DNA from: a virus
Direction: 5' to 3' (one strand)
IMG/VR virus record: IMGVR_UViG_3300029908_000007
Location: 64,001-128,000 of that record
Length of the DNA: 64,000 nucleotides
Shown: positions 34,464 through 62,827 of the stretch, one piece after another
Numbering within the stretch: position 1 is the stretch's first letter
Layout of the letters: each line of letters begins with the position of its first letter
Notes under the pieces: model-generated
Databases searched by the model: none
What the model was told of the DNA's origin: nothing
Seen by the model: only the letters and a program-made list of their open reading frames with translations
Made by a program: the position numbers and the translations under genes

Positions 34464-34478
34464 TAAAGATTGCGATTT
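34464..34478 (-). promoter_or_regulatory. Candidate late-promoter motif AAATCGCAATCTTTA
   Basis: Same 15-mer as 55674-55688; upstream of the fibre gene RBS. Confidence 0.65.
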
Positions 34479-35528
34479 CTACTGGTAAGCCGCTAATTGC
34501 CATGCCAGCCTATAATTTGAGGATCCAGTTGGTACATTCCAGTTCACCGTAAAAGTCGATATAGTTTTTGCGGTGATTGTAACTGGTTGAAATTGTGGAG
34601 AAATATCTGTATAATTGGTAAGCTCTGCTATGACCACGTAATTTGTAGATAATAGCGCTAAGGGGAAGGTAATAGTGATCGATGTTTGACCCGATCCTAC
34701 AATTGATTCCCCGGATTGTTCCGAAAGTCCTGGCGAAATCGCGTAGTCCAGGTAATAATTCCCGTCCGGAATAAGTTGATTCCATTCAAAAGTCGCGGTA
34801 GTCGTGGTTTTATTTGTAACAGTAAGTGGGAAAAATTCAGGATTGGGATCGGTTGAATTATAAATACCGCCCAAGATAACATAGGAACTACTACTTTGTG
34901 GACTCAAAAATGTAACTACTTGACTGGTTGTTCCCATAGTTAGTGGAACTTCCTGCGCGGTTCCTCCGCCGCTTCCCGAGCCCGAACCAGATCCATAAAA
35001 CATGGTGATCGCGCTTTGAACAACGTTTTGGATGGTACCACCCATATTGTGAAGCGTGACATACCCAAAAGGTTGGGTTTGTGATTGTGGGGCTGGAACC
35101 AGAGCGTCGGCTAATACCGCATTTGGGGTACCGATAACTACGGCGATATCATTGCTTTCATCGATAGCTAATAGAATTTGAACGTAATCTCCGGAAGGTA
35201 AAGTGAGTGGGATTGATCCTCCCGTAGAGGTGACAATATTTCCACCAGATGAAGCGGGGAAGGTCACGGTTCCACCCGTAAAGACCGGAACTACGGTACC
35301 TAAAAAAGAAGCCGATTTATTTCTGCCTGAGACGGAATTTGCAACTAGAGAAGGACCGATATTGACTACAAGAGAGGGACTAGACGTGGCGTCAATTTTA
35401 AATGGAGGGGTTAGATCTTGATCAATAGAAGATAGTAAAACGTCAAGAGTATTTCCTGAAACCCAAGGAAATAGTTCTTGTAAGATGCCACGATACTCGC
35501 TTTGTCTAGAATCTATGGGTTTATACAT
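34479..35528 (-). CDS. Tail fibre-associated protein with two C-terminal beta-sandwich repeats
   Basis: Two 'TF...YV....N.TD..P.F.P.T.T.KT...F..W' units. Confidence 0.7.
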   Translation of the reverse strand: MYKPIDSRQSEYRGILQELFPWVSGNTLDVLLSSIDQDLTPPFKIDATSSPSLVVNIGPSLVANSVSGRNKSASFLGTVVPVFTGGTVTFPASSGGNIVTSTGGSIPLTLPSGDYVQILLAIDESNDIAVVIGTPNAVLADALVPAPQSQTQPFGYVTLHNMGGTIQNVVQSAITMFYGSGSGSGSGGGTAQEVPLTMGTTSQVVTFLSPQSSSSYVILGGIYNSTDPNPEFFPLTVTNKTTTTATFEWNQLIPDGNYYLDYAISPGLSEQSGESIVGSGQTSITITFPLALLSTNYVVIAELTNYTDISPQFQPVTITAKTISTFTVNWNVPTGSSNYRLAWQLAAYQ

Positions 35529-35549
35529 ATCAATCTCTATATATCATAA

Positions 35550-36314
35550 CTAGTTGTTTGCAATAGCGTGCCAGACCAAAGAATAGTTTGCTGTTGCGGT
35601 CGGACTATTCCATTTAACCGTAAAGCCCGTGGTACTAAAAGCAGTAATTTCAATAGGTTGAAACTGAGTGTTGGTGTCAGTGGTGTTAATGAAATTACAT
35701 GTGATGGCATAACTTGTATTAGCAAAAGCCGTGCTGTAAGTAACGGAAACCGTGGTAACACCGCTGCCAATGGCCTGTGTTCCCGATCTATAAGTAATAG
35801 CGGTTGCATTGGTTGCACTATATGCGGCATCCCATGCAGCTGCGGTATTAACTGACGTCGAGGTACAAGTAAATATACACTGAGTTCCAGCCGCCATCAC
35901 TTGAACGCTAGCACTTGTAGAAGTCTGAACAGTTACTGAGCCCGTGGAACGATTCATTATCTGATAGGCTTGACCCACAACTAAAGTTGAGGTACTTGGC
36001 AAAGTAACGGTTTGTGTTGTGGTTCCTGTGAATTGCTGATAATATGTACTTGATACCGATAAAGTCGTAGTACTGGCAGCGGTAGCAGTAGTTGTAAAGC
36101 CCTCACTTATATTATTGATCTGTGTATTAGCGTTGGTATCCCTAAACATTACCGTAGAAGCCGTAGGAGCTGCTACAAGACTTACCGCACTAGGTGTGGT
36201 GGAGCTGCCACTGATATTAGCTAAGACCGTGGCAGTGGCGATCGACGGCAAATCCGTCAACGCCATCGCCGTGCCTCTTAGTGCTCCACTTACTGGTTTT
36301 GTAAAATTTGACAT
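35550..36314 (-). CDS. Tail fibre-associated mosaic protein
   Basis: Shares modules with both 31986-34436 and 34479-35528. Confidence 0.7.
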   Translation of the reverse strand: MSNFTKPVSGALRGTAMALTDLPSIATATVLANISGSSTTPSAVSLVAAPTASTVMFRDTNANTQINNISEGFTTTATAASTTTLSVSSTYYQQFTGTTTQTVTLPSTSTLVVGQAYQIMNRSTGSVTVQTSTSASVQVMAAGTQCIFTCTSTSVNTAAAWDAAYSATNATAITYRSGTQAIGSGVTTVSVTYSTAFANTSYAITCNFINTTDTNTQFQPIEITAFSTTGFTVKWNSPTATANYSLVWHAIANN

Positions 36315-36339
36315 CCTTACTTTCTATATCATGAACCTA

Positions 36340-38712: not shown

Positions 38713-38725
38713 GATTTACTCCTAA

Positions 38726-39181: not shown

Positions 39182-39196
39182 AGTTAGCTCCCAAAG

Positions 39197-42169
39197 TTAT
39201 AAAATATACCAAGCTGATCCCGAACTGACCACGGTTACGGTTTGCCATTGCGAAGACAATAGAAAAGTATTGCTGCCATCTATCAATTCCGACCCATTGG
39301 CCATAATCGTTAAAACATTTGCGCTGGAATCGATCTTCTTCATAAAAAAGATTCTTCCAACACCAGTGGCTGCGGTTGGAAGAGATAGTGTAAATGCTCC
39401 ACCGGTGCAATCGCCTAAAATTACAAAGTCTGTAGACATTAGGGTATATGGACCGGTTTTCGTAGAAACTGATACCGCGTTTCCAAATGCGTTGGTTCCA
39501 GCAGGCCCTGCGGGACCAGTAGGACCAGTAGGACCTTCGGGTCCGATTTCGCCCAGACTCCCACCATTACCGGCAAAACGAAACTGAAGTTCGTCGCCAA
39601 CAACTAATCCGCCACCGGGAAAACTAACGATTTGAATTTCATTACTAGGAGCGCCAGAGGCCCCGACTTCAGCATAGGCTCCGCTTTCAACGTCTAAAAA
39701 CTGACCATTAAGAAGAACTTGTAGTGTTCCTTTGCCCACGGTATAATATTGCGTTGCGTTGGCTTCTCTGCTATTATTTGGAAGATGAATGAAACCGCCA
39801 TTGGCAACGGGTCCGTTTATAGAGACCGGAGAATTTAAAGAAGGAGGATATGTTCCACCGGAAGCGACGACATCAACGGTCTCATCGTATGTTGGGGAAT
39901 CCAATGAACTTAGAATGATTCCAACGTCTTCATCAAGTTTTTTAATACCCAATGTTAGATTATCGCCGTCTTGAATAGCAAAGTTTCCACTACCAGTTCC
40001 GGCCTGTGTGGCAGAAATTGCAAACGGAGCACCCACATTAACGTTAGCCGGTGAATTGGTAAGACCGGCGCTGTTATTGGTAACGGTAATAACATTACTA
40101 ATTGCGGTTGCGGTGAAATCTTTTCTGCTTGTGGAATTGAGAAGAGTGGTCAACGTAGTTGCGGTTTGAGCAGCGGTTTGTCCAGTGGTTACAATCCATT
40201 CCAAAGAAATCGCATTTGCGATTGGCATTGGATCCACGCCGGTTCCATCTTTGTTTACCCAAACATAGTACTGTATAAGACTAACGGAAGGAAAAATTTC
40301 AAAATACTGATTAGAAGCCATCGAAGCCGCGCTACCGGTTGTAATGCTAACGATCTGTGGAAGAACTAAAGGTCCTCCGCCTTCCCACATTTGATATGTA
40401 GAAACATAGGCTGGAGCGGTGGCGCTTTCAATTGGGCTACCGGTGTAGGTAAGTAGGTTTTGAATTTGAGGACCACTGACGTTTTCGCTGACGCCATATG
40501 ATAAATCCATTCCTAACCAACGAATATAAACTCTAGGTAAGGCGCCGCCGTCATCGTTTCTAGCTAGCAACCACCAAGTATTCGATGCAATCGGTACGCT
40601 TGCACGTGGTACGATTTGAATATCTCTGGAATTACCACTAACACCGGGTAATGTATATTCTCCCCAAGCATATTGAGAAGCCGCTCCGCTAGCCCCCGTA
40701 GAAGTTCCACCATAAGTAGAAGTCAATGTGACTTGTGAAACAGAATTAACTGTCAAAATCTGATAATAGGCGGCATGACTTGCTGAAGCTATTTTGATCC
40801 AATCACCAGCAAGTACAGCGGACGTCCAGGCCACACTGCCTACGGAACTAACTACAGCAGAAGCATTGGTCCAAATAAGATCTGGGGAGATTGCGGCGTC
40901 GCGAGTAAGTTCTAAATAAGCGACTTCACCATCGGTCAGAGTTACTGTGCTACCCGTAGGATTTGCTTGGATCTGATATTCTAAATTAGAACCTATTACT
41001 TTAAAATTTAAAACGTTGGACCAATTAATTTGGCCCGGTTGCGTTGCCACAGGATTTGTAAATGAAACCGTGGTTCCAGTTACAGTATCTGAGGCTTCGT
41101 TGGACATGACAACCGTGGAACCACTAATAGAAAGAACCGTGGTGCCAGCGATAAAAGCTTCGCCACTGATATACTGACCACTGGCTATTCCTGTTGTGGA
41201 AGCCAGACTGGTAATTTGGTTGCTGCCTAGGGTAACGTTACCGGTAGTCGTGAGAATTGGTGTGGTATCGGGAATCACACCGTGACTGATGTTACCATTA
41301 CTGGTTAAGATGGTATTAACAGCGTCTTCTCTAAGTTGAGGTACACTGCCACCCGGACTTGGACCGGTCCCAAAAAACGAATACCAATAGGGTCCGCCGC
41401 CTAAATCTAGGAAGCCCGACATCACAGCGTTCATCCAATCCTTGAGATCGGTGATGGCTTTGTCTCCACCGTAAAACGGATTGCTGCCGTTTGTGGTAGT
41501 TACTGGTGGATTTTCTGAAGTCCCTTCCGGCCAACTATAGACATTGAACGGATTAGGATTGGCGCCGCCTGTTCCTAAGCGAAACAGTAGGGGCCTGGAA
41601 TCTGTTATGGAAACCACGTTGTTGCCGCTATCGGTAAGAATTACGGCAATGGGAAGAATGTTGGAAGCCCAAACCGTAGATGTGATTACGAATTCGTAGT
41701 TTAGGATGATCGCTGCGGGATCAATTGTGGAATCTTGTTGGCTCGTTGAAGGATCCCAAAGCGCACGTTGTACGTCGGTTGTGGGATCTTGGAAGCGATA
41801 GTAATCGATGCCAACATAGTTATTGGTGCCTGGAACGAAGGCGCCGCTGACATTTGACACAATCGCAGCATTTAGGGTAACAGCGGGGGTTCCAGCTGGA
41901 ACCAAATATATGGTACCTGACTGAGACGCGGTGACGTGCATGAGGGCGCCAGCGCTAACGATTACCTGTAGGTTTGAGGCGGCGCCACCGATGGGGTTGG
42001 TGGCCATGTTTAACGCGAAGCCGTTGATGATATAGGGGTTACCGGCTCCGGTCACGAATGCTTCAAAAGACGTGTCAAAGTCAGCACTTACAGCGGATTC
42101 AACAGCCTTTAGATCAGGCACGTCAACTCTCATCTGACTTAAATAATTTTCGCGGCGCTGAATAGCCAT
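39197..42169 (-). CDS. Baseplate-proximal tail fibre protein with a short collagen-like segment
   Basis: Start corrected to the ATG at 42169 (GAGG RBS); ITDSRPLLFRLG; GEIGPEGPTGPTGPAGPAG. Confidence 0.75.
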   Translation of the reverse strand: MAIQRRENYLSQMRVDVPDLKAVESAVSADFDTSFEAFVTGAGNPYIINGFALNMATNPIGGAASNLQVIVSAGALMHVTASQSGTIYLVPAGTPAVTLNAAIVSNVSGAFVPGTNNYVGIDYYRFQDPTTDVQRALWDPSTSQQDSTIDPAAIILNYEFVITSTVWASNILPIAVILTDSGNNVVSITDSRPLLFRLGTGGANPNPFNVYSWPEGTSENPPVTTTNGSNPFYGGDKAITDLKDWMNAVMSGFLDLGGGPYWYSFFGTGPSPGGSVPQLREDAVNTILTSNGNISHGVIPDTTPILTTTGNVTLGSNQITSLASTTGIASGQYISGEAFIAGTTVLSISGSTVVMSNEASDTVTGTTVSFTNPVATQPGQINWSNVLNFKVIGSNLEYQIQANPTGSTVTLTDGEVAYLELTRDAAISPDLIWTNASAVVSSVGSVAWTSAVLAGDWIKIASASHAAYYQILTVNSVSQVTLTSTYGGTSTGASGAASQYAWGEYTLPGVSGNSRDIQIVPRASVPIASNTWWLLARNDDGGALPRVYIRWLGMDLSYGVSENVSGPQIQNLLTYTGSPIESATAPAYVSTYQMWEGGGPLVLPQIVSITTGSAASMASNQYFEIFPSVSLIQYYVWVNKDGTGVDPMPIANAISLEWIVTTGQTAAQTATTLTTLLNSTSRKDFTATAISNVITVTNNSAGLTNSPANVNVGAPFAISATQAGTGSGNFAIQDGDNLTLGIKKLDEDVGIILSSLDSPTYDETVDVVASGGTYPPSLNSPVSINGPVANGGFIHLPNNSREANATQYYTVGKGTLQVLLNGQFLDVESGAYAEVGASGAPSNEIQIVSFPGGGLVVGDELQFRFAGNGGSLGEIGPEGPTGPTGPAGPAGTNAFGNAVSVSTKTGPYTLMSTDFVILGDCTGGAFTLSLPTAATGVGRIFFMKKIDSSANVLTIMANGSELIDGSNTFLLSSQWQTVTVVSSGSAWYIL

Positions 42170-42196
42170 TAAATGCCCTCTGGAATGGATCCTAGG

Positions 42197-42204
42197 TAAA
42201 GATT
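42197..42204 (-). promoter_or_regulatory. Candidate late-promoter motif AATCTTTA
   Basis: Intergenic, 27 nt upstream of the ATG at 42169. Confidence 0.6.
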
Positions 42205-42235
42205 GTTGTTTAACTGACACCCCTATTATATCATA

Positions 42236-42265
42236 TTGACATCGCAATCTTTACTGTGATATAGT
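42236..42265 (+). promoter_or_regulatory. Promoter TTGACA-18-TATAGT with ATCGCAATCTTTA embedded
   Basis: Consensus elements; late-like motif at 42241-42253. Confidence 0.65.
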
Positions 42266-42270
42266 CTAAA

Positions 42271-42672
42271 GTGAAGAGGTGCGCTACAGTGGGAAAAAGT
42301 AAGCGAACAGATAGATCGTTCACTAGAGAGCAGCGATTATCTAAAGAAAACAGGCAGTTAAAGAAAGAGTTGGCTCACCTAAGAAAACAGATAGCCCGTC
42401 TGGATCTGGATCGGTTCGAGACTCTCAGACAAATGGTAGCCGACCATGAGGAAAGCAAGCGTTTTGAAGAAAGTGCTGTAGAAGCCAACTCAAATATAGA
42501 GGCTTTGAAGCGTGATTGGGCATGTCATGAATGCGACAACGGTTTTTTAGAGATTGTTTTGTATTCAAAGATGGGGACTACGCAATACTACAGGAAATGC
42601 AATAACTGCACCAATCGTACCAAGGGTAAGCGTTACGAAGAAACTGTGAAGGGAATCCTAAAGAATGATTGA
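42271..42672 (+). CDS. Coiled-coil plus zinc-ribbon protein
   Basis: CHEC...CNNC; alternative GTG start at 42289. Confidence 0.7.
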   Translation: MKRCATVGKSKRTDRSFTREQRLSKENRQLKKELAHLRKQIARLDLDRFETLRQMVADHEESKRFEESAVEANSNIEALKRDWACHECDNGFLEIVLYSKMGTTQYYRKCNNCTNRTKGKRYEETVKGILKND

Positions 42673-42892
42673 AGGCGACGTTGTTATTTGTGCCACTTCT
42701 CAGGCCGGTAGTATTGTTCAAATCGATGGCAAAAATGTTTGGGTATTGTTAAGAAATCACGATATTTGGACTGGCCTCTTAAGTCAAACCTACAAACCGC
42801 AATCCAAAGAACATCTGGATGCCTGTCCCATAGATGTCGCCAGGGTAGAGGCTAAACGCACAATCCGTGAAGACAGCGGATACGAAGACTAA
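42665..42892 (+). CDS. Small SH3/KOW-like hypothetical protein
   Basis: 'GDVV.....AGSIVQIDGKNVWV' beta pattern. Confidence 0.55.
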   Translation: MIEGDVVICATSQAGSIVQIDGKNVWVLLRNHDIWTGLLSQTYKPQSKEHLDACPIDVARVEAKRTIREDSGYED

Positions 42893-43641
42893 TCCACCCA
42901 CCACTTCGAATATGGGTTATTATTTAGCCCTTGCGGACTGTAATAAATCGAAGTCACAGACTTCATGGGATCCGCGCCATAGTATTTCTTCAATCTCCAA
43001 AACCAAACCTTACTTGCTAACCAACACCATAGACTAGTCTTTTTTAGGTTATTTTGAATCGTCCAGGTAAGCTGTCTGGTATTGGTATCCATGACGTTTT
43101 CCGACATATTGGAAATCGCGATGGCTAGCGCGGAAAAAACGAACAATGGATGACACATCCAGCGAATCCAGCAATGCAAGGGATTGATTAGAGATGGAAA
43201 TGCCGCCGAAATCATCGCGGTAAGAAGTGCGGGTTGTCTGATTAAAAAAGCCTGCCATTGCCACTTGCCGGGCTGCGGATTATAGAAAGAGCCTTTATAT
43301 TTGATACAACCCCAAAGTAATTTACGGGGGATTTCCGTGTTTCCCAATTCAATGCATGCGCTTACTGTGCCATAATAGTCATCTGGGCCATTGAGTCCGT
43401 CATTTTGTCCAACAGGAACTCTATTGAGTAGGTTGGAACCAATACACTGATTGATTTTGGCGGCGTAGTCTATTTTGTCTTGATCGGTAAGTTGTCCGTT
43501 TTTGTTTAATAATATATAATAGATGGAAGTAAAAAGATTTCCATTGTCAGAGCCGCTTTGTCCGGGTTGCCACGTACCTGGATTTGGGGTGTTTAAATTG
43601 TTTCCATCAATGTACGTGGAAAAATCCTGTCTTATCGTCAT
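42889..43641 (-). CDS. Hypothetical Trp-rich protein
   Basis: 250-aa ORF; DNG and PDDYYG motifs. Confidence 0.75.
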   Translation of the reverse strand: MTIRQDFSTYIDGNNLNTPNPGTWQPGQSGSDNGNLFTSIYYILLNKNGQLTDQDKIDYAAKINQCIGSNLLNRVPVGQNDGLNGPDDYYGTVSACIELGNTEIPRKLLWGCIKYKGSFYNPQPGKWQWQAFLIRQPALLTAMISAAFPSLINPLHCWIRWMCHPLFVFSALAIAISNMSENVMDTNTRQLTWTIQNNLKKTSLWCWLASKVWFWRLKKYYGADPMKSVTSIYYSPQGLNNNPYSKWWVD

Positions 43642-43646
43642 ATTAG

Positions 43647-43654
43647 TAAAGATT
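43647..43654 (-). promoter_or_regulatory. Candidate late-promoter motif AATCTTTA (leaderless geometry)
   Basis: 5 nt before the ATG at 43641. Confidence 0.6.
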
Positions 43655-51964: not shown

Positions 51965-52972
51965 TTATAGAATTCCCATTTCTTTTAGCTTTTTCTGATT
52001 CCAAAGTTCTGAATTGGGATACTCTGACTTAAGCCAATCCCATTTGATCTGGGCATCGGGTCTCATCCAACCCTTAATTTCTACCCAAACGTTTAAATCG
52101 GACAAATACAGATCTGGTCGATAGGTCTTGCCATCGGGCATTTTAAAAGTCTTGGGTTGCCAGTCGAAGTTGATCTGGTTAGCATTGAGATAGTCTACGG
52201 TTTTAGCTTCATATGAGCCTACGCAAACTAGCTCTTCATTGGTTTTCCAATGGAATTTGATGGAGGCTCTATTAGCGGACCTAGCAATTTTAAGCGCTAT
52301 TCCTGGATCTTGAATGGCGTACTCGAAACCATATCTAAGTAATGAAGTCTGTCTGACTTTTTCCCTTACTTCCGGAGATTTGCTGGGATGGTCAACCCCA
52401 CGATTCTTAAGATTCGTTTTCTTTTTCTTCTCTTTTACGGAATCTGCCTGAGAAAGATTTTTTACTCCGTATTTTTCTTCTATTGTTTTATTACGTTTAG
52501 TCTTAGCTTCGGCATTCTGAGAAGCGTGTTCTACTCCATATTTTTTTAAACTAATTCTTTTCTTCTTTTCTTCTTTATCACCGGGATGAGAATCACCTCT
52601 CACATAAACATGGTTCGGATAGGCAAAAAATTCTCCAATTCCCTTTTGAAAAAATCTACAGACTGTATGAGTATCCACGTAAGTACTTTCATCTACGGTC
52701 ACTAAATTCCCATGAATGCGAACGAGTCTTTCTTTAAATTCTTCTAATGTAAGAGACTGTTCTTTCGCTCTTCTTTTGATTCCTACATCGGGATGGGTTT
52801 TTCCCTGAAACACAAAGGTGGGTTTAACCCACCATTCTCTGTCGTAGTCCTTGTGAATAAATTTTGCCTTTATTTGACTTCCGCGATAGGTCTCCACACA
52901 AAGGGTAAGAGAATCCCCATGTAATTTTTTAATCTTATCTAACACCTCTTTTAATGTCATCTTCTTTGGCAT
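51965..52972 (-). CDS. PD-(D/E)xK-type homing endonuclease with KYG repeats
   Basis: KKYGV / EKYGV / RYGF repeats; YRPDLYL...WVEIKGW. Confidence 0.8.
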   Translation of the reverse strand: MPKKMTLKEVLDKIKKLHGDSLTLCVETYRGSQIKAKFIHKDYDREWWVKPTFVFQGKTHPDVGIKRRAKEQSLTLEEFKERLVRIHGNLVTVDESTYVDTHTVCRFFQKGIGEFFAYPNHVYVRGDSHPGDKEEKKKRISLKKYGVEHASQNAEAKTKRNKTIEEKYGVKNLSQADSVKEKKKKTNLKNRGVDHPSKSPEVREKVRQTSLLRYGFEYAIQDPGIALKIARSANRASIKFHWKTNEELVCVGSYEAKTVDYLNANQINFDWQPKTFKMPDGKTYRPDLYLSDLNVWVEIKGWMRPDAQIKWDWLKSEYPNSELWNQKKLKEMGIL

Positions 52973-53014: not shown

Positions 53015-55660
53015 TCATGAAGCTAGCTCAAAACTTAATGGTAAGGTGCCGCTATTCCCTGGTAACGCTACTGCCAAGTTTATTGACAACTTTGGTGGCG
53101 CCGCTGTAATTTGAAGACTTGTTACACTTGCAAATCGTGGATCTTGAGTAACTTGTTGATTTATTTGCTGATAAAGCTGTTGAATATTCAAGTCTGCAAT
53201 ACTTGTACCAGGACTCACACCGCACCCGTAGTTGGGGTCCAATAGTGAGGTATTCAGAACAGTTGAAAACAGTATCCATAAGGCCTGGATAAGATTTGTT
53301 AATCCAAACGCGATCATACAATTTCCGTATTGGTCGAAGGCTAAATCGGAACCATTCAGCAAAATATCCACTCCCGACAATCCGGTCAACGGATCGTTCT
53401 GCGCGAGACCGGGAGGAATGATGTTTGCCTGTCCTGGGTAAGTCGGGGCTGGTAGATCGGAAGGAATAAATATCTTCTGTTGCGAATTTACCGTATTCGG
53501 TAAATATGCCTGTACGGTAGCATTATCGCTTGTAATAAAATTACCAAGATTTGGTTCGCCATTTAAGGTCAAAAGATAGCTATTGGCATTAGGCAAGGTC
53601 GTGATATTTGTAATCTGTCTTGAGACAGGTATTTGTGTAAGACTTACTAAAGTGACGGTTTGCCCAATGAACAAATTTTGATTGCTAGAAACTACTACCT
53701 GTCTTCCAATAGCGTTACTTAGCAATGGTAATAAAAAGGGAGTGTTTGAAATGTATGGCTCTTCCAAATTATTCAAAGTTGCGATTTCAATCCACCTATT
53801 TGGATCTCCGAGGTATCGTGCGGCGATTTGTTCGATGCTTGCGTTAAAAGGAACCGGTACGTAGACCTTGCTGTTGGGGATGTTAAACGGAATGCCCGAT
53901 GCATTGGCTAGGCCCGCAACATAATTCATAGAGCTGACGACGTTGAGATCGGTTACCTGCGTGGAAGCCGTGAGATAGTTGATACCACTTACGAATTCGT
54001 ATAGTGTCTCCAAAATATCGAACTCCGGAATTTGCATCGGTTGAATTCTAGAAGGAGGAGGTGTGAGATTAAACAAAGTGTTGTAAGTCGTATCTCCGGC
54101 GCCGAAATAATCTGCTAATTGAATGGCGAGATTTAAAATCATACTCTGGTTTTTTTTGAGCTGGGCTACGGTCAGCGTGGTATTTGACAATATACTGTTT
54201 AGCTTCGCCTGTTGTGCGGAATTCAGACTTAACTGATTAGTGGGTACCTGATCTAAGAGATCGACATTTGCGTTGGGATTATTAAGAACCGCTGCGGCAT
54301 TACTGGTCTGTTGTGCGTTTTGTGCGGCCACGCCTAATTGACCACCGGATACCGAAGTCTGGGTTAGCCCGTTATTCTTATTGTTGTTGGCGACCAATGC
54401 TGCGATTGCCGCCGCACCTGCTGCGGTTGTGACCGCTGCCGCTATTGCCGCAGAATTTATAGAAGCGTACTGCGCTATTGCGGAATTAAAATCCTGTGCT
54501 ATGGCTTGTGGCATATCGGAAGCCGTGGTTCCAACGCCAAGCAGATCTTTTACAAATAACGCGGTTTGACTGAGCACGCTGAACACGCCGTTAACGTCTG
54601 AGGTCACCGCACCAATCAATGCAATAGCCGAACTGCAGGTAAGCCGGGCTTCGGTGATGCTGTTTAGAATCTTCTGTAAGATACCCGGCGTGATGGTATA
54701 TGCTTGTGCTTGATTTACAGGTTGAGGAATTTCGCTGAGATCGATACGGCGCCAACCCTTGAACTGGAGTTGGTACATTATTTCCATCGGCTTGTTTACG
54801 CTTTGCTGCCAGGTAAACGCCAGCGGGGTTACAACGTAGGATTGGTTTTGTTTGGGTATGTCAAACACCAATCGCCAGCCCGCGTTTTTGGGGTTCTTCT
54901 TGGCTTCAGCGTATTGTTCCAAAAATTGTTGCAAATAAAGAGCTTGATAATAGCCCGTAGTCTCTCCACCGGCTCCGCCTGGATCCGTGGGACCGATTGT
55001 GACGGGTTTGCTATTCGGGCTATTCGTGGTGAATGTTTTAACCGTAGCAGCTGCTTGGTTGATAAGGCTAGTCGCCGCCGATAGGGTTCCACCGAATACG
55101 GATTGAATTGTGGAAGGGCTCTGAGGTGGTTTGGTCACACTTCCTCGTTGAGGCCAAACGCCCATGGTGCCAGACGCGCTGATCATTTTAAACTTAACAC
55201 CGTTGTGCTCTTCCAAAACACCTCTTAAAGTAGCCGAGGTATTGATAGCGTATTGGTCGACAATGCTAAGTTGTTGTGGAGTAATAGGTAGATTTAAAAG
55301 CCAACTATTGTTTACGGGTGTGAAAATCAGTGTAGAAGAGCCCTGTTGTTGACCTGCTACAAGCTGAACAGAGAATTGGGAGGTCGCCGTCCCTACGATT
55401 GTGTTATTCTTTGAGGTGTCAACTACAAGTAATCTATAGGGAAAAAGCTGATTCCAGCGTTCGGCTTGAATCGTTATAGGAGCATAAAATGGACTAACAG
55501 ATGGGGTCTGACCATTGGCATTCCACGGTAGAAGGCCTGGAGTTGCGGCATTGGCGGCGGTACCAGAAGATAGGCCAAAAGCTGCTAGAGCGGAGTTGCT
55601 CAGACTACTAATAGCGTCGCCTACGCCTAAATTGCCGGTGCCGTTGTCAAAAACTCCCAT
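53015..55660 (-). CDS. Baseplate protein: tube-initiator-like + LysM + gp25-like fusion
   Basis: LPITPQQLSI; SIEQIAARYLGDPNRWIEIATLNNL (LysM-like); DPNYGCG...QDPRF (gp25-like). Confidence 0.75.
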   Translation of the reverse strand: MGVFDNGTGNLGVGDAISSLSNSALAAFGLSSGTAANAATPGLLPWNANGQTPSVSPFYAPITIQAERWNQLFPYRLLVVDTSKNNTIVGTATSQFSVQLVAGQQQGSSTLIFTPVNNSWLLNLPITPQQLSIVDQYAINTSATLRGVLEEHNGVKFKMISASGTMGVWPQRGSVTKPPQSPSTIQSVFGGTLSAATSLINQAAATVKTFTTNSPNSKPVTIGPTDPGGAGGETTGYYQALYLQQFLEQYAEAKKNPKNAGWRLVFDIPKQNQSYVVTPLAFTWQQSVNKPMEIMYQLQFKGWRRIDLSEIPQPVNQAQAYTITPGILQKILNSITEARLTCSSAIALIGAVTSDVNGVFSVLSQTALFVKDLLGVGTTASDMPQAIAQDFNSAIAQYASINSAAIAAAVTTAAGAAAIAALVANNNKNNGLTQTSVSGGQLGVAAQNAQQTSNAAAVLNNPNANVDLLDQVPTNQLSLNSAQQAKLNSILSNTTLTVAQLKKNQSMILNLAIQLADYFGAGDTTYNTLFNLTPPPSRIQPMQIPEFDILETLYEFVSGINYLTASTQVTDLNVVSSMNYVAGLANASGIPFNIPNSKVYVPVPFNASIEQIAARYLGDPNRWIEIATLNNLEEPYISNTPFLLPLLSNAIGRQVVVSSNQNLFIGQTVTLVSLTQIPVSRQITNITTLPNANSYLLTLNGEPNLGNFITSDNATVQAYLPNTVNSQQKIFIPSDLPAPTYPGQANIIPPGLAQNDPLTGLSGVDILLNGSDLAFDQYGNCMIAFGLTNLIQALWILFSTVLNTSLLDPNYGCGVSPGTSIADLNIQQLYQQINQQVTQDPRFASVTSLQITAAPPKLSINLAVALPGNSGTLPLSFELAS

Positions 55661-55673
55661 TTAACCCTCAATG

Positions 55674-55714
55674 TAAAGATTGCGATTTTCGGTCTTATGA
55701 TATACTATATCATA
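55674..55714. promoter_or_regulatory. Bidirectional control region: late motif (55674-55688, -) plus 9-1-9 palindrome TATGATATA-C-TATATCATA (55696-55714)
   Basis: Directly visible between two divergent genes. Confidence 0.7.
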
Positions 55715-56289
55715 TGAGCCCTATTTTTAGAATGTTTGCCCTTGTTTTTGTTGCTGTTTTGGTTAATTTCAGTTGCCAAAGCTGTTCTTCTATTGGTATA
55801 AAACCATTCCCCGAGTATAAAGGCGTAGATCCTAGAGCTGAGAGCATTGTCAAAGAATATAAAGAATTGGCTAGAATTCAAGGAATCGTCTTTAAAAACG
55901 AGGTAACTGTTGGATTTAAAACGATAAATCGTGGAACAGTGATTGGCATTTGTACCAGAGCGCCGTTTTGGCATGAAGTGGATTTGGATCTTGATTTCTG
56001 GAATCAAGCCACACAAACATCGAGGCTGGCCCTGGTCTTGCATGAATTATCACATTGTTACTGCGAACGCGGACATGATTGGGGCAATGCACACGATTAC
56101 CCCGAAACTTCCAGCGAAAGGCTCAAAGAGATCTTGGATTCGTTGGCGGAAGGCAAAGTACCTCCTGGACGGTACGATGACAACTGTCCTCAGAGTTTGA
56201 TGTTTCCAGAAATTTTAACCGATGGTTGCGTTAAAGCTCACTATGGCGATTTTTCGAAAGAGCTATTCCAAAGATGTGTGCCATACTAA
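55714..56289 (+). CDS. Exported matrixin-like zinc metalloprotease
   Basis: Signal/lipoprotein-like N-terminus; GIC, HELSHCYCERGH, Met-turn SLMFP. Confidence 0.8.
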   Translation: MSPIFRMFALVFVAVLVNFSCQSCSSIGIKPFPEYKGVDPRAESIVKEYKELARIQGIVFKNEVTVGFKTINRGTVIGICTRAPFWHEVDLDLDFWNQATQTSRLALVLHELSHCYCERGHDWGNAHDYPETSSERLKEILDSLAEGKVPPGRYDDNCPQSLMFPEILTDGCVKAHYGDFSKELFQRCVPY

Positions 56290-56290
56290 T

Positions 56291-56659: not shown

Positions 56660-56916
56660 ACCCTGAGTGGTAGAATTTGAAGACTAGATAGGCAATTCAT
56701 GGCTGCGTTATATTGTTTTTCATTGCCTTCGTCTAGGGTGCGCAGGATATTGCTCATTAGAATGTCGTAGTACTTTTCAGCTTCCTGACGGGAGAAAGCA
56801 AAATCGCCGTCCTTCTGGTAAAAATCGCTGCCAATTTGTATAACGTAGGTATTAGCTTCGGCTCTGAAGATCTGTTCCTTGGTAATTCCTGCGAACGGTC
56901 TCTTCTTCTTGCTCAT
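56653..56916 (-). CDS. Hypothetical protein
   Basis: ATGA-coupled to the CPBP gene. Confidence 0.65.
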   Translation of the reverse strand: MSKKKRPFAGITKEQIFRAEANTYVIQIGSDFYQKDGDFAFSRQEAEKYYDILMSNILRTLDEGNEKQYNAAMNCLSSLQILPLRVQ

Positions 56917-57455
56917 AAATGTCCCACAGCCGCCCTTACCGTCATGATGGTCGCGAAGTCATAGAGCATGTGTCCCAACATAAGAGTTGTAACACCATTC
57001 TTTTCAATGAACCTAACAGCGTAGGGGATATAAAAAGAAATCATAGCCGCAGCAAACACGCCTTGGTAAGTGTGTCCCGTGAAGAAGGAGAGCATAACAA
57101 AAGCTAATAATAGCATGTGGACAGGCCACATCCACTTACTGGTTCCCAGCATGCGTTTCAATAGAACTAAGGGAAAACTATAGCATAAGTCTTCCCACCC
57201 GACAAACGCGGTTCCACCAATCGGTAACATGTAGGCGGTTTGCGCTTGTTCTAATCCGATTCCTTGCGAGAAAGCGGTTTTGATCATAAAATATCTAACT
57301 ACTGACATGCAGGCCATGAACAAAACCCATTTACCAAAAACTTTAGGTTTGAAAGATAGCAGATTTTTATATTCGGATTTCCAAACACAGTAAAAGGTAA
57401 AAACGCCTAAGCACCAATATGGAAGCATACGAGTGGCAAATTCTAAAAAGCTCAT
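56913..57455 (-). CDS. CPBP (CAAX/Abi) intramembrane metalloprotease-like protein
   Basis: Multi-TM; WED, F..GH, GHMLYD. Confidence 0.7.
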   Translation of the reverse strand: MSFLEFATRMLPYWCLGVFTFYCVWKSEYKNLLSFKPKVFGKWVLFMACMSVVRYFMIKTAFSQGIGLEQAQTAYMLPIGGTAFVGWEDLCYSFPLVLLKRMLGTSKWMWPVHMLLLAFVMLSFFTGHTYQGVFAAAMISFYIPYAVRFIEKNGVTTLMLGHMLYDFATIMTVRAAVGHL

Positions 57456-57468
57456 AGTTACCTCAAGT

Positions 57469-57476
57469 TAAAGATT
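57469..57476 (-). promoter_or_regulatory. Candidate late-promoter motif AATCTTTA
   Basis: In a 22-nt gap, 13 nt before the ATG at 57455, with GAGGT RBS. Confidence 0.6.
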
Positions 57477-57477
57477 C

Positions 57478-57738: not shown

Positions 57739-57746
57739 AATATCTC

Positions 57747-58682
57747 CTATTTTGTAAATACGTGTGTGCTTAACGACGGATCCATTGGAACCAAGGGAGG
57801 GCCGGTTGGAACCGCGAGATCGCCGATATGAGTGTGAGCATTGTACAATGTAGCAAAAGTATTTCCTTTGATTACGGCTTCAACCGCACCTACTCCTAAA
57901 TCGATATTGCTTCCGTCTATAGTCGTGAGACCTTCGGCGATAATATCCGTGGTCCCCGTAGTTTGGATACTAGTATTTCCCTGATTTATAACATTAATAT
58001 TTCCAGTCGCCGTTACCGTCACGTCTCCACTTTTAGCCATCGTAAACGTAGCCGTGCTGTGGGCAACACTAAAGCTTCCATCGGTTGAAATCTGGACAAC
58101 TGTATTGCCTTGGCTGGGGTCAACCGGCGTTCCGTCACTATTTGTGGCGCCTTTAAAAGTTAAGGCCGTAGAACCGTCTGGGTTGACTGCGACATTGACA
58201 CCGTTATACTCGCCCTGCAAACGAGGTTGAGTATCTACAAGAGTGGTCGATCGATCGGGATTAGGAAATCCTCCAATGATCATGGCTTTATTAGAAGTGC
58301 CATCCAAACAAAGAAGTAGAACAATACTACCATTTTGTCCACTAAATCTAACCGCCTCACCTGTATAGGTCTGTTGGGTTTTGGCTCTAAAGTTCATTTC
58401 GAAAAAATCGGCGACGCCACCAAAGGAATCATTGGCCAAACATTTTTTATACCTAATAGTCGTGGCTCCGCGATCCTCATCCTGCTGGGTTGTGACTACA
58501 TCGTACTCGGTCGACAATTTGGTTCTATTTTCTGGATCACTTATTGGATAAGATGCAACCACAACTCCAGCCCTGAGTGCTGTGTCTTTATAGCTCTTAT
58601 TGAATCCAGCCATTTGAGAACTGACGGAATCGCCCAACAAACCGGAAGGAAGTACGGCGCCATTTTCTAAGTAGTTGCTCAT
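57747..58682 (-). CDS. Baseplate central spike (gpV/gp5-like)
   Basis: OB-fold-like N-terminus, beta-helix repeats, HTH metal-binding apex 'NAHTHIG'. Confidence 0.85.
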   Translation of the reverse strand: MSNYLENGAVLPSGLLGDSVSSQMAGFNKSYKDTALRAGVVVASYPISDPENRTKLSTEYDVVTTQQDEDRGATTIRYKKCLANDSFGGVADFFEMNFRAKTQQTYTGEAVRFSGQNGSIVLLLCLDGTSNKAMIIGGFPNPDRSTTLVDTQPRLQGEYNGVNVAVNPDGSTALTFKGATNSDGTPVDPSQGNTVVQISTDGSFSVAHSTATFTMAKSGDVTVTATGNINVINQGNTSIQTTGTTDIIAEGLTTIDGSNIDLGVGAVEAVIKGNTFATLYNAHTHIGDLAVPTGPPLVPMDPSLSTHVFTK

Positions 58683-60553
58683 GTGTTGGTATTCTCCCCG
58701 CCGCCAGTGCGTTGAGGGCTGTTAATAGAAGTGCCTGTATTGGGTTGAGGAAATCCGGTTCCACCACCATGCGGGGTATCTGGATTAGAAGGAGCGCTTC
58801 TGTAAACCGTGTCTTGGCTTTCTGATACTCCGGGAAGAATTTGATTATGTTTGTAATCGTTTTGTCGCAAAGCGTAGGCATCGGAGAATGTCATTTCCGC
58901 GTATTTTAAGCCTTGTTTGCTGGAACCAATGCTTATGCCGTGACTAACACTTAGTGTGGTTACAAATTTCTTCCTACCATCTGCGGGTGATATCGCACAG
59001 GTATGTGAGATCTGTTCTATGTGATACACGACTCCGTTGAACTGTAGATTATCTCCTACTGCGATGGGATCTACGATGCCCACGCATTCTATGGTTCCGT
59101 TCATTTTTAACTGGCCGCCGATAAGAGCATCTCCCAATATCTTGGCCCAATAAACGCTTTTATAATCGGTCTTATTGGCATAATTAACGGGTTCGTCGAA
59201 AAGGGAAGTGACTACATAAGGTCGGAGCCCGCTTCTCTTGACATCATCGACGTCGTAAAGATAGTTCTTTTGTGCGGTTTCAGAAGAAAGATCGTAGCCT
59301 TCTGGACCCAATGTAGACCTACCGAAGTACTGAACAAAATTAATTCTAGCAGATTCGTCTCTACCTAGATCAAAATTATAAACTATGGCAGGATCTATCT
59401 TCCATCTTGGGATGTTCATAAATCTAGTAACTTGAAAACCACCTACGGCAAAATCATCATTCGTGAAAGGTATTTGTCTGAAAACCACGGTTGGCATGAC
59501 ATCACCATCTGGGGAGAGCCTAAAACAGGTATATAGTTCGTTGATTGGAGCATTGGAGAATTGATTAAGGATTGACCAAACCTGAACCTGATTCCAATAT
59601 TCTGGTTTGGTTACGGTTTCACCCTGGCATTTATTGCTGGTAACGAAAAATCTTCCATCGTCTTGCGAAATCGTTGGGTTGAGACCGCTGGCAGCGTCTT
59701 GACTAGCATTGGCGTTATAACTCTGTATACCAAAAAGATAGTTGTACACGTCTTTAGCCGCAACGGCTTCCGGCACATTCAATAGTTTCCCCAAAAGACC
59801 GGGAATAAAAAATAGTGTGTTTGGACTTTTAACTATGCCTTTTACAAATCTTCCATTGTCGCCTATCCCATTTCCAACTAGAACTTCTATCAAGAACTGC
59901 ATTATGTCCTGAACGTTAGTAAGTCCTTTATTGGTTACCATGAGCGCCCAGGCAGAGGCTAGGTTGGTAAACCATAGATTGACGTTATTTTGTTCGGATT
60001 GATCGACGAGATTTTGATTAAAGTAAATGGTATTATTGAATTCCGTGAAAGCAAAACCCGTAATTCTATATACCAGCGATTTAGTTCCTTTTTCCTGATC
60101 AATAATAGCCAATGATTCTCTGACCCCTTGTACTTTGAAAACACCCTTAAATCCGTCATTGGCTCCATTGATGGGTAAACTATTTCTGGCGTTGTCGGCA
60201 ACACGTCGGGCTTCGGATTCCCAGTTCAACATATTTACTATTACGAAATCACCGGGCGCGATTTCGGTTTCATAATTTACGTCGGTCATAAGAAGAGTGG
60301 CCGACATAGAGGGAGTAAGAACGCCTTTATTAACATTGGCGGAAACCTGAATACAGTCGTTTTCAACTACTAACGGTTTAGGTCTCACCGTGGTATAGTT
60401 GACTCCATTGCTTGGAGTCGTCCTAAGCGTATCTCTTTGTTGCCAGCTTACGAAAGTTAGGACCCAGGTAGGACTGCTTTGATTTACAAAACCTTCTCCT
60501 TGGCCGTTACCATGTACGGTTAGGGGATATGTGTAGGCGTTGGTATTCGCCAT
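58679..60553 (-). CDS. Baseplate hub (gp27-like)
   Basis: Lies between TMP and spike; NELY, VFRQIPF, VKRSGLRP, YHIEQISH. Confidence 0.7.
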   Translation of the reverse strand: MANTNAYTYPLTVHGNGQGEGFVNQSSPTWVLTFVSWQQRDTLRTTPSNGVNYTTVRPKPLVVENDCIQVSANVNKGVLTPSMSATLLMTDVNYETEIAPGDFVIVNMLNWESEARRVADNARNSLPINGANDGFKGVFKVQGVRESLAIIDQEKGTKSLVYRITGFAFTEFNNTIYFNQNLVDQSEQNNVNLWFTNLASAWALMVTNKGLTNVQDIMQFLIEVLVGNGIGDNGRFVKGIVKSPNTLFFIPGLLGKLLNVPEAVAAKDVYNYLFGIQSYNANASQDAASGLNPTISQDDGRFFVTSNKCQGETVTKPEYWNQVQVWSILNQFSNAPINELYTCFRLSPDGDVMPTVVFRQIPFTNDDFAVGGFQVTRFMNIPRWKIDPAIVYNFDLGRDESARINFVQYFGRSTLGPEGYDLSSETAQKNYLYDVDDVKRSGLRPYVVTSLFDEPVNYANKTDYKSVYWAKILGDALIGGQLKMNGTIECVGIVDPIAVGDNLQFNGVVYHIEQISHTCAISPADGRKKFVTTLSVSHGISIGSSKQGLKYAEMTFSDAYALRQNDYKHNQILPGVSESQDTVYRSAPSNPDTPHGGGTGFPQPNTGTSINSPQRTGGGENTNT

Positions 60554-62739
60554 TATCTACCGCCCTGAGGTTGTCTGCTTCTAGACGTGGGATGAAAAAA
60601 AGATCCCTCTTCTTTTTTGACCGGAGTTCTTCCAACTATATCTAGGTTTTCTTTTACAGCTTTATTGAACTTATCTAATCCATCAGCGGCTGGGACTATC
60701 ACATCTTTCAGTCCTCTAAAACTTTCCAATATAGCTTTGGAATCCGCTGCCAAAGCTTTGACCATTTCGTCTTCCGCTCTTCCGGTTTCACCGGGACCTT
60801 CCAACTTTTTCTTTGCCATTTCTTCGAACATATCTGTTCGACCAGCTCCTGCGGGCTGAGTTGTGCCCTTAATAAAAGCTTCCATTTGTTTGCGATTTTT
60901 AGCCATTTCAGGGTATTCTATAGCAGTTACTTTAAACAATTCTTGTTCTTGCTGATTGATTTGGCCACCGACTTCTCCCATTCCTTTAGCACTTAGTGGT
61001 CCCATCATCTGCGCTCTTTTTGCGGCAAGACTCTTAGTTAGTACATCGCCTTGAGGCAAGCGATGAATTGCTCCAGCACCGGCTTTTTGTAATCTACCTA
61101 CAAGATCTTCTGGAGATTTGCCATATTTACGGGATAACTCTTGTACTATGGGATGATCGGCAGATAATTGATCGGCGGGAATCGTAGAAAGCGAAGCTCT
61201 GTCCATTGGGGACATACCTCCAATTACGGAATCCTGAAGCATGCCAGCGGCACGCATGACGCCTTGAGGTCCGGTGTTGGCCGATGTTATCTGATTGAAC
61301 GCCTGATAAGCACCTTGGGCGCCTTGAATGCCTCTGGTAGTGGGTTCCGCCATGAAACCGCCGAAGCGCTTTACAATGTTCTCGATATCTGCTTGATTAC
61401 CGGTTTCACTTCTAGAAATTACCTGAGCCGTGGCGTCTAGGAATTTGCGATTCTCTTCTCTGAATTCGCTGCCATCTAAACCCAGTCTATTGCCTTCGGC
61501 GATCATTTTGACAAATGCCTGAGTAGAAGCTTGTGAACTTCCCAGGGTTTGGGAAAGATTTCCCAGGATTCCACCGGCATTGGTGATATCCATGTTTCTT
61601 GCCGCTTGTAAGCCTGTGACAGAACCTCTGCCCATTCTAGTAGATCCGCCAGCTCCTATGATCTGGCCCGACATCTGGGCCGCCATGTCATCAGTAAATC
61701 CAGCACCAACCGCTCGTTCTCTGAATCCTCCGGGGCCGTGAAAAGTGCTGTAATCCAAACCGAGTTGTCGTTGTGTGGAAAGATAGCCTCCAGCGGCTCC
61801 TCTAAACTGTTCTTGAGCCCTCAATTTCTTGAGCCCTTCGGGACTGGATTTAAGTGCTTCGTATTGTTTGGCTTGTTCTTCTTCGAATTCCTGTCGTAGC
61901 TCCGCCTGGACCATATCCTTTTGGCCTTGATTTCCGAACACACCCATAAGTGATTGTCTTGGCCTGAGAATCGCGGCTAGCGGATTATTCAGCCTACCTT
62001 CCATGCGCTCACCGGCGACGCCATGAGCTTTAGCTCTTTCACCCCTAAACATAAACTCTTCCATTGACTTGCCAGCGTAGAGTGCGTTGAACTGGGCTCC
62101 AGGGGCTCCGGCTTGAGCTATGGAAGCCGATAAGAGTTCTGTGGCTCTACCACCGGATTCCGCGAAAGATCTGCGAATGTTTTCGATCATCAAGGCGACA
62201 CCGGTGATGGCCGCTGCGGCGCCGGTTACAACGGCTGCGGTTCCTGTTATCGAAGAAGTGAGAGAAGAAAGAGCCGCAGTAGAACTACCTTGATTCCCAG
62301 GAGCTGGGCCGCCGGTTAGATTTCCACGGTTAACCAACGTATGTAGTTCGCCCGTGGTTCTAAGTTCTTGCTTCTTTAATTCGTTAAGCCTTTCCTGAAT
62401 CTGAAACTTTCTTTGTTCGCTTGCTAATCCGCTGGCTTGTTCTTTATTTAGGTCGCCTTGAAGTTTTTTTATGACTTCCATCTTGCGACGGGTTTCTTCG
62501 AAAATCTTATCGGATTGCTGTTTTGCTTTGTTTTGCTCTTGCTGGACCTGGCCCGAAGAAGGCGCTCCTGGAAGGCCTCCTAGACCCATGGCACGCATTT
62601 TCTGGTCGATCTGGCGCTGCTGCTGGAGAAGATTGGCGGGATTATTCAGCTGATTGAGCTGTTCTTGCATCCTTTTGACGGCGCTTTGAAAAGCTTTATC
62701 ATCCAGATCAAGACTGATTTTTAGTTTTTTCTCTGCCAT
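60553..62739 (-). CDS. Tape-measure-like protein
   Basis: Ala/Gly/Gln-rich and helical; 'KLKISLDLD' N-terminus; upstream of the hub. Confidence 0.65.
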   Translation of the reverse strand: MAEKKLKISLDLDDKAFQSAVKRMQEQLNQLNNPANLLQQQRQIDQKMRAMGLGGLPGAPSSGQVQQEQNKAKQQSDKIFEETRRKMEVIKKLQGDLNKEQASGLASEQRKFQIQERLNELKKQELRTTGELHTLVNRGNLTGGPAPGNQGSSTAALSSLTSSITGTAAVVTGAAAAITGVALMIENIRRSFAESGGRATELLSASIAQAGAPGAQFNALYAGKSMEEFMFRGERAKAHGVAGERMEGRLNNPLAAILRPRQSLMGVFGNQGQKDMVQAELRQEFEEEQAKQYEALKSSPEGLKKLRAQEQFRGAAGGYLSTQRQLGLDYSTFHGPGGFRERAVGAGFTDDMAAQMSGQIIGAGGSTRMGRGSVTGLQAARNMDITNAGGILGNLSQTLGSSQASTQAFVKMIAEGNRLGLDGSEFREENRKFLDATAQVISRSETGNQADIENIVKRFGGFMAEPTTRGIQGAQGAYQAFNQITSANTGPQGVMRAAGMLQDSVIGGMSPMDRASLSTIPADQLSADHPIVQELSRKYGKSPEDLVGRLQKAGAGAIHRLPQGDVLTKSLAAKRAQMMGPLSAKGMGEVGGQINQQEQELFKVTAIEYPEMAKNRKQMEAFIKGTTQPAGAGRTDMFEEMAKKKLEGPGETGRAEDEMVKALAADSKAILESFRGLKDVIVPAADGLDKFNKAVKENLDIVGRTPVKKEEGSFFHPTSRSRQPQGGR

Positions 62740-62757
62740 TTCAATACCTTAGCGGTT

Positions 62758-62827
62758 TGGTCTTTAAATACTAAAAGACCATATAGGTAAAGATTCCAAT
62801 CTTTGACCCTACCCCGGCGTTATATCA
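62758..62827 (-). promoter_or_regulatory. TGATATA (62821-62827), AATCTTTA (62788-62795) and an 8-bp leader hairpin (62758-62781)
   Basis: TGGTCTTT-N8-AAAGACCA inverted repeat between the motif and the ATG at 62739. Confidence 0.6.

Follow-up and report, generated by a model that had tools for sequence, protein, structure and literature searches.

What is the octamer AATCTTTA doing in the short gaps between the genes of an uncultured phage? The stretch that raises this question comprises positions 64001-128000 of virus record IMGVR_UViG_3300029908_000007, whose full length is 162,308 base pairs (bp) at 44% G+C content (GC); we refer to these 64,000 nucleotides (nt) as the window and to the whole record as the genome. 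An earlier note on the window had read the octamer as a late promoter that consists of a -10 element only and is recognized by a phage sigma factor lacking region 4.2. Our results suggest a single-element, phage-specific class of promoters with its own layout and leaderless output, read by a 351-amino-acid (aa) phage sigma on the host core RNA polymerase as part of a cascade, and we assign this proposal as a whole a probability of roughly 0.7. The octamer taken by itself is very probably a -10-type promoter element.

The first line of evidence is where the octamer occurs. Its raw count in the window is only modestly high, with 10 copies against an expected 4.67 +/- 2.0 (a value reached by 2 of 100 shuffles). 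Seven of these copies fall within the approximately 4% of the window that is noncoding (P about 3e-7), all of them on the sense strand with a start codon 5-48 nt downstream. Based on a crude greedy map of open reading frames (ORFs), which yielded 233 genes at 93% coding, we ranked all 8-mers of the genome by intergenic enrichment. AATCTTTA took first place, as 21 of its 29 copies lie in the 7.7% of the DNA that is intergenic (binomial p=1e-17), and comparable enrichment was found for none of its 24 one-mismatch variants across the genome. The eight coding copies genome-wide are not above compositional expectation. Furthermore, when four large relatives (G001, G002, G004, and G005) were analyzed as full records alongside the 162-kb genome, co-directional gaps held 43 sense versus 4 antisense copies (p=3e-9); in the 162-kb genome alone, the split was 11 versus 0. 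In the same five genomes, AATCTT-type words inside genes lie more often in antisense (81) than in sense (42), which may mean that spurious internal sense promoters are avoided or may be an effect of codon usage.

The seven intergenic sites of the window, all listed by the earlier note as intergenic and sense, turned up where it had placed them:

Positions 34464..34471, minus strand: AATCTTTA box upstream of gene 31986-34436 (27 nt to the ATG), whose 816-aa product has a C1q-like fibre-type domain; transcription predicted to start near 34459.
Positions 42197..42204, minus strand: AATCTTTA box upstream of gene 39197-42169 (990 aa; 27 nt to the ATG, which is at 42169).
Positions 42246..42253, plus strand: AATCTTTA box facing the divergent gene 42271-42672.
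Positions 43647..43654, minus strand: AATCTTTA box upstream of gene 42889-43641 (5 nt to the ATG, which is at 43641); no Shine-Dalgarno sequence, leaderless mRNA predicted.
Positions 55674..55681, minus strand: AATCTTTA box upstream of the baseplate assembly gene 53015-55660 (13 nt to the ATG).
Positions 57469..57476, minus strand: AATCTTTA box that immediately follows the upstream gene's stop codon and precedes gene 56913-57455 (13 nt to the ATG).
Positions 62788..62795, minus strand: AATCTTTA box upstream of gene 60553-62739 (48 nt to the ATG), included in the palindrome AAAGATTggAATCTTT.

The three remaining copies in the window were judged to be chance occurrences:

Positions 13383..13390, minus strand: AATCTTTA copy within a plus-strand gene, antisense.
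Positions 20666-20673, minus strand: AATCTTTA copy inside coding sequence.
Positions 45452-45459, minus strand: AATCTTTA copy in sense orientation, 900 nt inside gene 44547-46481.

Two further claims of the earlier note held up as well. The 15-mer AAATCGCAATCTTTA is indeed common to sites 34464 and 55674, with 13 nt of it present at 42241-42253, and the octamer is absent from the gaps before the replication genes. These occupy the first 31 kb of the window on the forward strand (DNA polymerase III alpha and an SbcC-like protein, with helicases just upstream), and this block has no intergenic AATCTTTA; it does have TTGAC[AT]-N16-18-TAnnnT at seven intergenic sites on the forward strand and one on the reverse strand, with a spacer that often begins TTTTAAAA. 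Beyond 31 kb, the window is made up mainly of reverse-strand tail and baseplate genes, including homologs of the baseplate assembly, baseplate J-like, and kelch-repeat proteins of Myxococcus phage Mx1 (OR576727.2). The extended form ATCGCAATCTTTA that the earlier note offered proved particular to this genome. The 13-mer has four exact copies genome-wide, one in G001, and none in the three other relatives; the general consensus is (g)C AATCTTTA only, and the ATCGC extension is specific to the 162-kb genome.

The second line of evidence is conservation. A protein search with the baseplate gene returned 28 IMG/VR loci at 33-74% identity. The exact octamer precedes the baseplate homolog in about 19 of the 28 relatives and AATCTTAT does so in five others, with flanks that cannot be aligned and distances to the ATG that run from 5 nt to more than 50 nt. 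The octamer is again the top intergenic-enriched 8-mer in G001 (20 of 32 copies, p=1e-14), and it is enriched in G005 (13 of 32, p=1e-7). G002 and G004 share the core gCAATCTT[TA][AT], that is, positions -6 and -5 are relaxed to W W. When genes were compared across genomes, retention of the box followed the genes that carry it here:

G001: box kept by 14 of 16 orthologs of motif genes versus 4 of 84 orthologs of other genes (Fisher p=8e-12).
G004: box kept by 7 of 12 orthologs of motif genes versus 1 of 62 orthologs of other genes (Fisher p=3e-6).
G002: box kept by 6 of 13 orthologs of motif genes versus 5 of 65 orthologs of other genes (Fisher p=2e-3).

Site 42197, for which the ORF map took a TTG start upstream of the box, was left out of this scoring. 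A conserved counterpart exists in G001 for six of the seven window sites. The G001 ortholog has its box 29 nt upstream at the counterpart of 34464, 4 nt before the ATG at that of 43647, and 14 nt away at that of 57469. The upstream box of site 42246 is kept in the G001 and G004 orthologs, as is that of 62788 (47 nt in G001 and 54 nt in G004). Relatives with the motif range in GC from 0.33 to 0.51, and its persistence over this range makes a phage-borne reader likely. Mx1 was the only cultured relative found in the phage collection; a DNA similarity search with the structural region against cultured phages gave no match, and a literature search on AATCTTTA returned primers and unrelated sites only, with the motif in a promoter role not found. 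AATCTTTA is almost certainly a genuine transcription initiation signal, and many uncultured phages, forming a large group of Mx1 relatives, use it for genes of the tail, the baseplate, lysis, and other functions.

The third line of evidence, geometry, suggests what kind of element this is. Across the pooled set of 88 intergenic sites from the five genomes, the spacing between octamer and start codon has two modes. It is 4 nt at nine sites and 5 nt at three, all of which lack a Shine-Dalgarno sequence; no site falls at 0-3 nt or at 8-11 nt, and from 12 nt upward there is a broad spread, usually with GGAG or GAGG. The pile-up of start codons has a P of 3.5e-7 when all intergenic positions serve as the null. 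In the same genomes, the end of the second hexamer of canonical TTGACW-N16-18-TAnnnT promoters lies most often 6 nt from the ATG (eight sites) or 7 nt (two sites), and 9-13 nt is empty. Counted from AATCTT, the octamer gives 6 nt (nine sites) and 7 nt (three sites), with 10-13 nt empty, so that its peak matches that of the canonical hexamers. Furthermore, the fifth nucleotide after the octamer is a purine at 70 of the 88 sites and C at only one, against 41-48% purine at the four preceding positions.

Upstream of the box, there is little to read. No position beyond -18 was informative in the 88 aligned sites, leaving no -35 block, and the flanks show a preference for C at the preceding base, a weak A-richness further upstream, and nothing else. 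An extended -10 TG at -15/-14 is not a feature of these sites either (T at -15 in 8 of 88, G at -14 in 30 of 88). If AATCTT is aligned with -12 to -7, all 88 sites have A at -11 and T at -7, the two universally conserved -10 positions (PMC12276001), whose bases are flipped out of the helix by factors of the sigma70 family. Generic scans of window 31-64 kb for sigma70 promoters and terminators returned chance-level results. Judged by the sequence statistics, the motif comes out as functional, oriented, conserved, and placed like a -10 box. The -10-only promoter of the earlier note finds strong in silico support in the enrichment, the orientation, the conserved regulon, the lack of upstream information, the leaderless geometry, and the purine at +1.

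Which genes stand behind the box? They include baseplate and fibre-like genes in the window, the endolysin, and a gene with a prohead-protease-like domain, such as would be expected of the late label in the earlier note. The octamer also precedes a gene ahead of the portal gene and an operon with a sheath homolog. The label fits less well for two homing/HNH endonuclease genes and several small unknown genes outside the virion block, which have the octamer too, and for the portal and terminase genes, which do not. Directly upstream of portal, terminase, GroEL, the phage sigma, and several window genes, the box is TGATATA instead. From gene content, "late" is a reasonable label for the AATCTTTA genes, one that we apply with moderate confidence.

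(A)TGATATA is the second most enriched intergenic motif of the genome in the 8-mer ranking (13 of 21 copies), once the contig-end repeat is set aside. That repeat is a second family of enriched words (CTGGCTCG and related words) belonging to a 24-bp tandem repeat at the contig ends and is not a promoter. Its arrays occupy genome positions 1-100 and 162080-162308, with alternating units such as CTGGCTCGAATCGCACGCCCTAAC and CTGGCTCGAACCATACGCCGTAAC, and they may be a terminal repeat marker or an assembly wrap-around. Sites of the form TGATATA(AT) occur in the window at 35540 (-), 36325 (-), 42225-42233 (-), 42257 (+), 52982 (-), 55698 (+)/55706 (-), and 62821 (-). They have the look of TGn-extended -10 elements, usually without a -35, and often lie 7-11 nt before the ATG, which therefore implies leaderless mRNAs. 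At divergent junctions, the motif is often palindromic, as in TGATATAgTATATCA at 55698-55712. Leaderless start codons stand behind all three promoter classes (TTGACW/TAnnnT, TGATATA, and AATCTTTA) in the five genomes, and leader lengths between ~3 and 7 nt form a clean empty zone. If these starts are used as predicted, the hosts of these phages must translate leaderless mRNAs efficiently.

The two motifs meet at several junctions of the window, with TGATATA and AATCTTTA in tandem at 42197, 55674, and 62788. Because TGATATAAT (42225-42233, minus strand) precedes the 42197 box by 20 nt, gene 39197-42169, a homolog of an Mx1 gene that adjoins the baseplate block, appears to have tandem promoters. 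On the other side of the same gap, the 42246 box sits inside the 18-nt spacer of a sigma70-type promoter, TTGACA (42236) ... TG-A-TATAGT (to 42265), giving nested or overlapping promoters. The palindromic TGATATAgTATATCA upstream of the 55674 box serves the divergent gene 55714-56289. The 57469 box, directly after a stop codon, is a predicted internal promoter that splits an operon. Upstream of the 62788 box lies TGATATAAC at 62821 on the minus strand, followed by a 9-bp hairpin (62933-62912, minus strand). The box itself is part of a perfect palindrome at 62788-62805, AAAGATT-gg-AATCTTT, whose opposite strand carries the one-mismatch copy AATCTTTG. Inverted pairs of boxes flank or interleave divergent promoter regions at window 42197/42246 and genome 53165/53186.

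Homing/HNH endonuclease genes stand between virion genes at window 51965-52972 (-) and at genome 24173-25570 (-) and 48876-50210 (+). Each has its own box, either TGATATA or TTGACA with AATCTTTA directly after a terminator. These genes look like self-contained mobile cassettes that use the promoter code of the phage.

What could read such a box? The candidate is a gene that spans the left edge of the window:

Genome 63421-64476, plus strand (3' part at window 1..476): sigma70-family gene of 351 aa, candidate reader of the box, from NCBIfam, PHROGs, and PDB searches.

The protein has segments resembling regions 1.2, 2, 3, and 4.1 and ends at ...KLRGVTF, before the helix-turn-helix of region 4.2. 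It gave weak but consistent matches to RpoD, SigA, and FliA models (regions 2 and 3-4.1) and to phrog_351; a six-frame search with Sigma70_r2 missed this divergent sigma. Ten orthologs, including that of Mx1, all end at the same point and have in common a YFRE segment that resembles region 1.2. The truncated sigma was present in all eight genomes searched that are at least 79% complete or hold the region; the two records without a match are 32-38% complete, and within the sampled clade the sigma and the motif never separate. In a pairwise alignment of low confidence, the helix that would read -12/-11 lacks the Trp-Trp/Gln of primary sigmas. That helix carries FRSVxxGR in all AATCTT genomes and FGAV in Mx1. 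Upstream of the sigma gene itself is a TGATATA box and not AATCTTTA, which fits a cascade from host sigma to phage sigma.

Searches for other readers were negative within their scope. In the genome, there was no match to a multisubunit RNA polymerase and no large ORF with an RNA polymerase match, although the Pfam search for a T7-type RNA_pol was run without working controls. A 107-aa ORF at 12856-13179 had no match in Pfam, NCBIfam, or PHROGs, and a 301-aa ORF at window 24440-25345 had no sigma-family match in the same three databases. The sigma lacking region 4.2 that the earlier note had called for thus exists, and in every sufficiently complete genome, although its link to the box is one of co-occurrence. 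We lean slightly toward the 351-aa sigma as the reader of AATCTTTA.

Put together, these elements make up the following proposal, in which we infer where transcription begins, when the genes are expressed, and which factor reads the box. AATCTT would act as the -10 hexamer (-12 to -7), followed by TA at -6/-5 and preceded by a weak C at -13, with no -35. Transcription would begin at the fifth, or sometimes the sixth, nucleotide after the octamer. Where the start codon occupies that position, as at about 15% of sites (in the window, at 43647), the mRNA would be leaderless; elsewhere, it would have a leader of at least 12 nt with a Shine-Dalgarno sequence. The 351-aa sigma (regions 1.2 to 4.1, without the -35-reading region 4.2) would probably direct host core RNA polymerase to the box. 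The TGATATA box of the sigma gene is of the extended -10 type and would be an expected substrate of the host primary sigma, so the likely cascade would run from host sigma to phage sigma to the AATCTTTA genes for tail, baseplate, fibre, lysis, some head functions, and mobile endonucleases.

A wider version of the proposal stands at about even odds. It holds that a primary-like sigma found throughout the clade has lost its -35-reading domain and reads a new 8-nt code (AATCTT at -12 to -7, in which C at -9 is invariant, and TA at -6/-5); region 2 and the region 1.2-like segment would perhaps do the reading. It would drive a conserved morphogenesis and lysis regulon in which approximately 1/7 of promoters start on the ATG, would have traveled across hosts of 33-51% GC, and would have changed its code in the Mx1 branch.

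Several observations weigh against our proposal. The strictness of the octamer, without usable one-mismatch variants, exceeds that of most promoters read by sigma factors and would suit a sequence-specific DNA-binding protein. In three cases, the copy is located in the spacer of a good sigma70-type promoter, and some copies are paired in inverted orientation or belong to a palindrome, an arrangement that resembles operators. The co-occurrence of the 351-aa sigma with the box offers no discriminating case, and the alignment of its region 2.4 is of low confidence. Finally, a sigma without region 4.2 is classically expected at TGn-extended -10 promoters, which fits TGATATA at least as well.

This last point leads to the alternative that survives best, although we consider it unlikely. 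In this scenario, the box is a promoter, but the 351-aa sigma reads the TGATATA(AT) extended -10 class, and AATCTTTA is read by another phage factor, for example the 301-aa protein at window 24440-25345, or by a factor that re-targets the host sigma. Loss of region 4.2 does not prevent sigma70 from using TGn-extended -10 promoters; TGATATA is second in enrichment and has the same leaderless geometry; and a His aligns (pairwise) at the region 3.0 position of the 351-aa sigma. Yet the sigma gene is itself behind TGATATA, so by reading that class the protein would be making itself, and any host primary sigma would already use TGnTATAAT well. In addition, the -10 helix of the 351-aa sigma lacks the residues that read TATAAT, and the 301-aa protein lacks any sigma-family match.

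Less probable still is that AATCTTTA is the site of a phage DNA-binding regulator, either an operator for a repressor or an activator site near -30 like the MotA box, and is itself no -10. Such a regulator would account for the strict octamer that tolerates no mismatch, for the copies in sigma70-type promoter spacers at genome 25587, 53165, and 106246, and for the inverted pairs (window 42197/42246 and genome 53165/53186) and the palindrome at window 62788; the octamer also has a likeness to the T4 MotA box (..TGCTTTA). Against this, the strand bias is strong (43 to 4), the box is without dyad symmetry, and the aligned sites show no conserved TAnnnT 11-13 bp downstream of the box. Moreover, at 12 sites the start codon comes 4-5 nt after the box, so that transcription initiated about 25 nt downstream would begin within the gene. 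The distribution of distances equals that of true -10 hexamers, and most copies have no sigma70-type promoter nearby.

It is more improbable again that the box acts in the 5' leader of the RNA, as a translational enhancer like the epsilon of T7 gene 10 (UUAACUUUA) or as a site for an RNase or regulator. The box is always in sense, just upstream of start codons, and often directly before a Shine-Dalgarno sequence, and its sequence has a likeness to epsilon. Against this, the distance to the ATG varies from 4 to more than 100 nt and shifts between orthologs (5 versus 13 nt for the baseplate gene), and neither the empty zone at 8-11 nt nor the geometry of a -10 hexamer is expected of an RNA element; in addition, a purine peak falls exactly on the fifth nucleotide after the box. 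The copy at genome 25587 comes directly after a hairpin and T-run, where read-through transcription cannot reach it, and lies between the hexamers of a TTGACA-N17-TATGCT promoter, whose transcripts would not include that copy; its position is therefore evidence against a role at the RNA level.

A chance or compositional artifact of AT-rich intergenic DNA has next to no probability: the raw window count is only about twice expectation and within reach of 2 in 100 shuffles, but first rank among all 8-mers, neighbors of similar composition that are not comparably enriched, strand bias, and conservation before orthologs all speak against it. A nick-, pac-, or primase-type site was rejected, as the boxes follow gene orientation on both strands.

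If AATCTTTA is a promoter as proposed, transcription units could be charted from it at once in hundreds of uncultured phages of ~130-175 kb, most of whose genes are unannotated. Genes under common control with tail and lysis functions can be predicted from the motif, which also marks true and often leaderless start codons. In addition, the truncated sigma and its 8-bp promoter would form a compact candidate for an orthogonal pair. If the proposal is true, it adds another natural case of initiation independent of a -35, with a -10 code that has C at -9, unlike TATAAT.

How does this arrangement compare with known systems? The late promoters of T4 (TATAAATA; gp55 with gp33 and the gp45 clamp) are alike in having a single strict 8-bp -10 box and no -35, in serving virion and lysis genes, and in relying on phage-encoded specificity on host core RNA polymerase, here still a candidate. 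The T4 box is unrelated in sequence to AATCTTTA, however, many targets here are predicted to be leaderless, and promoters of the AATCTTTA class are not known to depend on a gp33-like protein or a clamp. T4 gp55 is a minimal sigma, whereas the candidate here is primary-like (1.2-like, 2, 3, and 4.1), even if its RpoD and SigA matches are weak; the models that it matches are RpoD, SigA, FliA, and phrog_351, and no search aimed at gp55 was made.

The middle and late promoters read by gp36 of phiEco32 have the consensus AATGTA centered at -11.5 (PMC12276001). They resemble those described here in being single-element promoters used by a phage sigma (here a candidate) on host core polymerase, in having a core that begins with AAT, and in leaving early genes to host sigma70. 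Compared by promoter consensus, AATGTA and AATCTT(TA) differ at 2 of 6 positions, and the placement here is -12 to -5. The phages differ as well, phiEco32 being a 77-kb podovirus and the phage here a relative of Mx1 of ~160 kb and myovirus type.

Extended -10 promoters (TGnTATAAT) can be used by sigma70 without region 4.2. They are likewise independent of a -35, with contacts made by sigma regions 2 and 3 only; AATCTTTA differs in having no TG at -15/-14 and a noncanonical hexamer, and it is the separate TGATATA class that fits the type. The middle promoters of T4, with a MotA box near -30, provide a poorer parallel, given the lack of a conserved downstream TAnnnT and the starts 4-5 nt after AATCTTTA. 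The same holds for an epsilon-like enhancer of T7, which has a constrained distance in the leader, whereas AATCTTTA can be anywhere from 4 to over 100 nt away from the start codon, with differences among orthologs.

A further comparison is with Mx1 itself (169,621 bp, GC 0.555). Its truncated sigma is an ortholog at 32% identity, annotated as "putative RNA polymerase sigma factor," and Mx1 shares the sigma, helicase, portal, terminase, capsid, baseplate, and polymerase genes, with neighbors such as the helicase-sigma pair in the same order. Yet AATCTTTA occurs in Mx1 only once. The enriched intergenic word there is GGATCT, mostly inside the spacers of TTGAC-type promoters. As cGGATCT, it holds a roughly fixed spacer position in many such promoters of a block of small, probably early, genes (e.g., TTGACgtctgacgcGGATCTgcTAGAGT), and it may be where a regulator binds or what corresponds in Mx1 to the AATCTTTA box. 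Overall, the logic of the proposed system appears to match that of the T4 late and phiEco32 gp36 promoters; what differs is the sequence of the box, the primary-like truncated sigma, and the frequent leaderless output.

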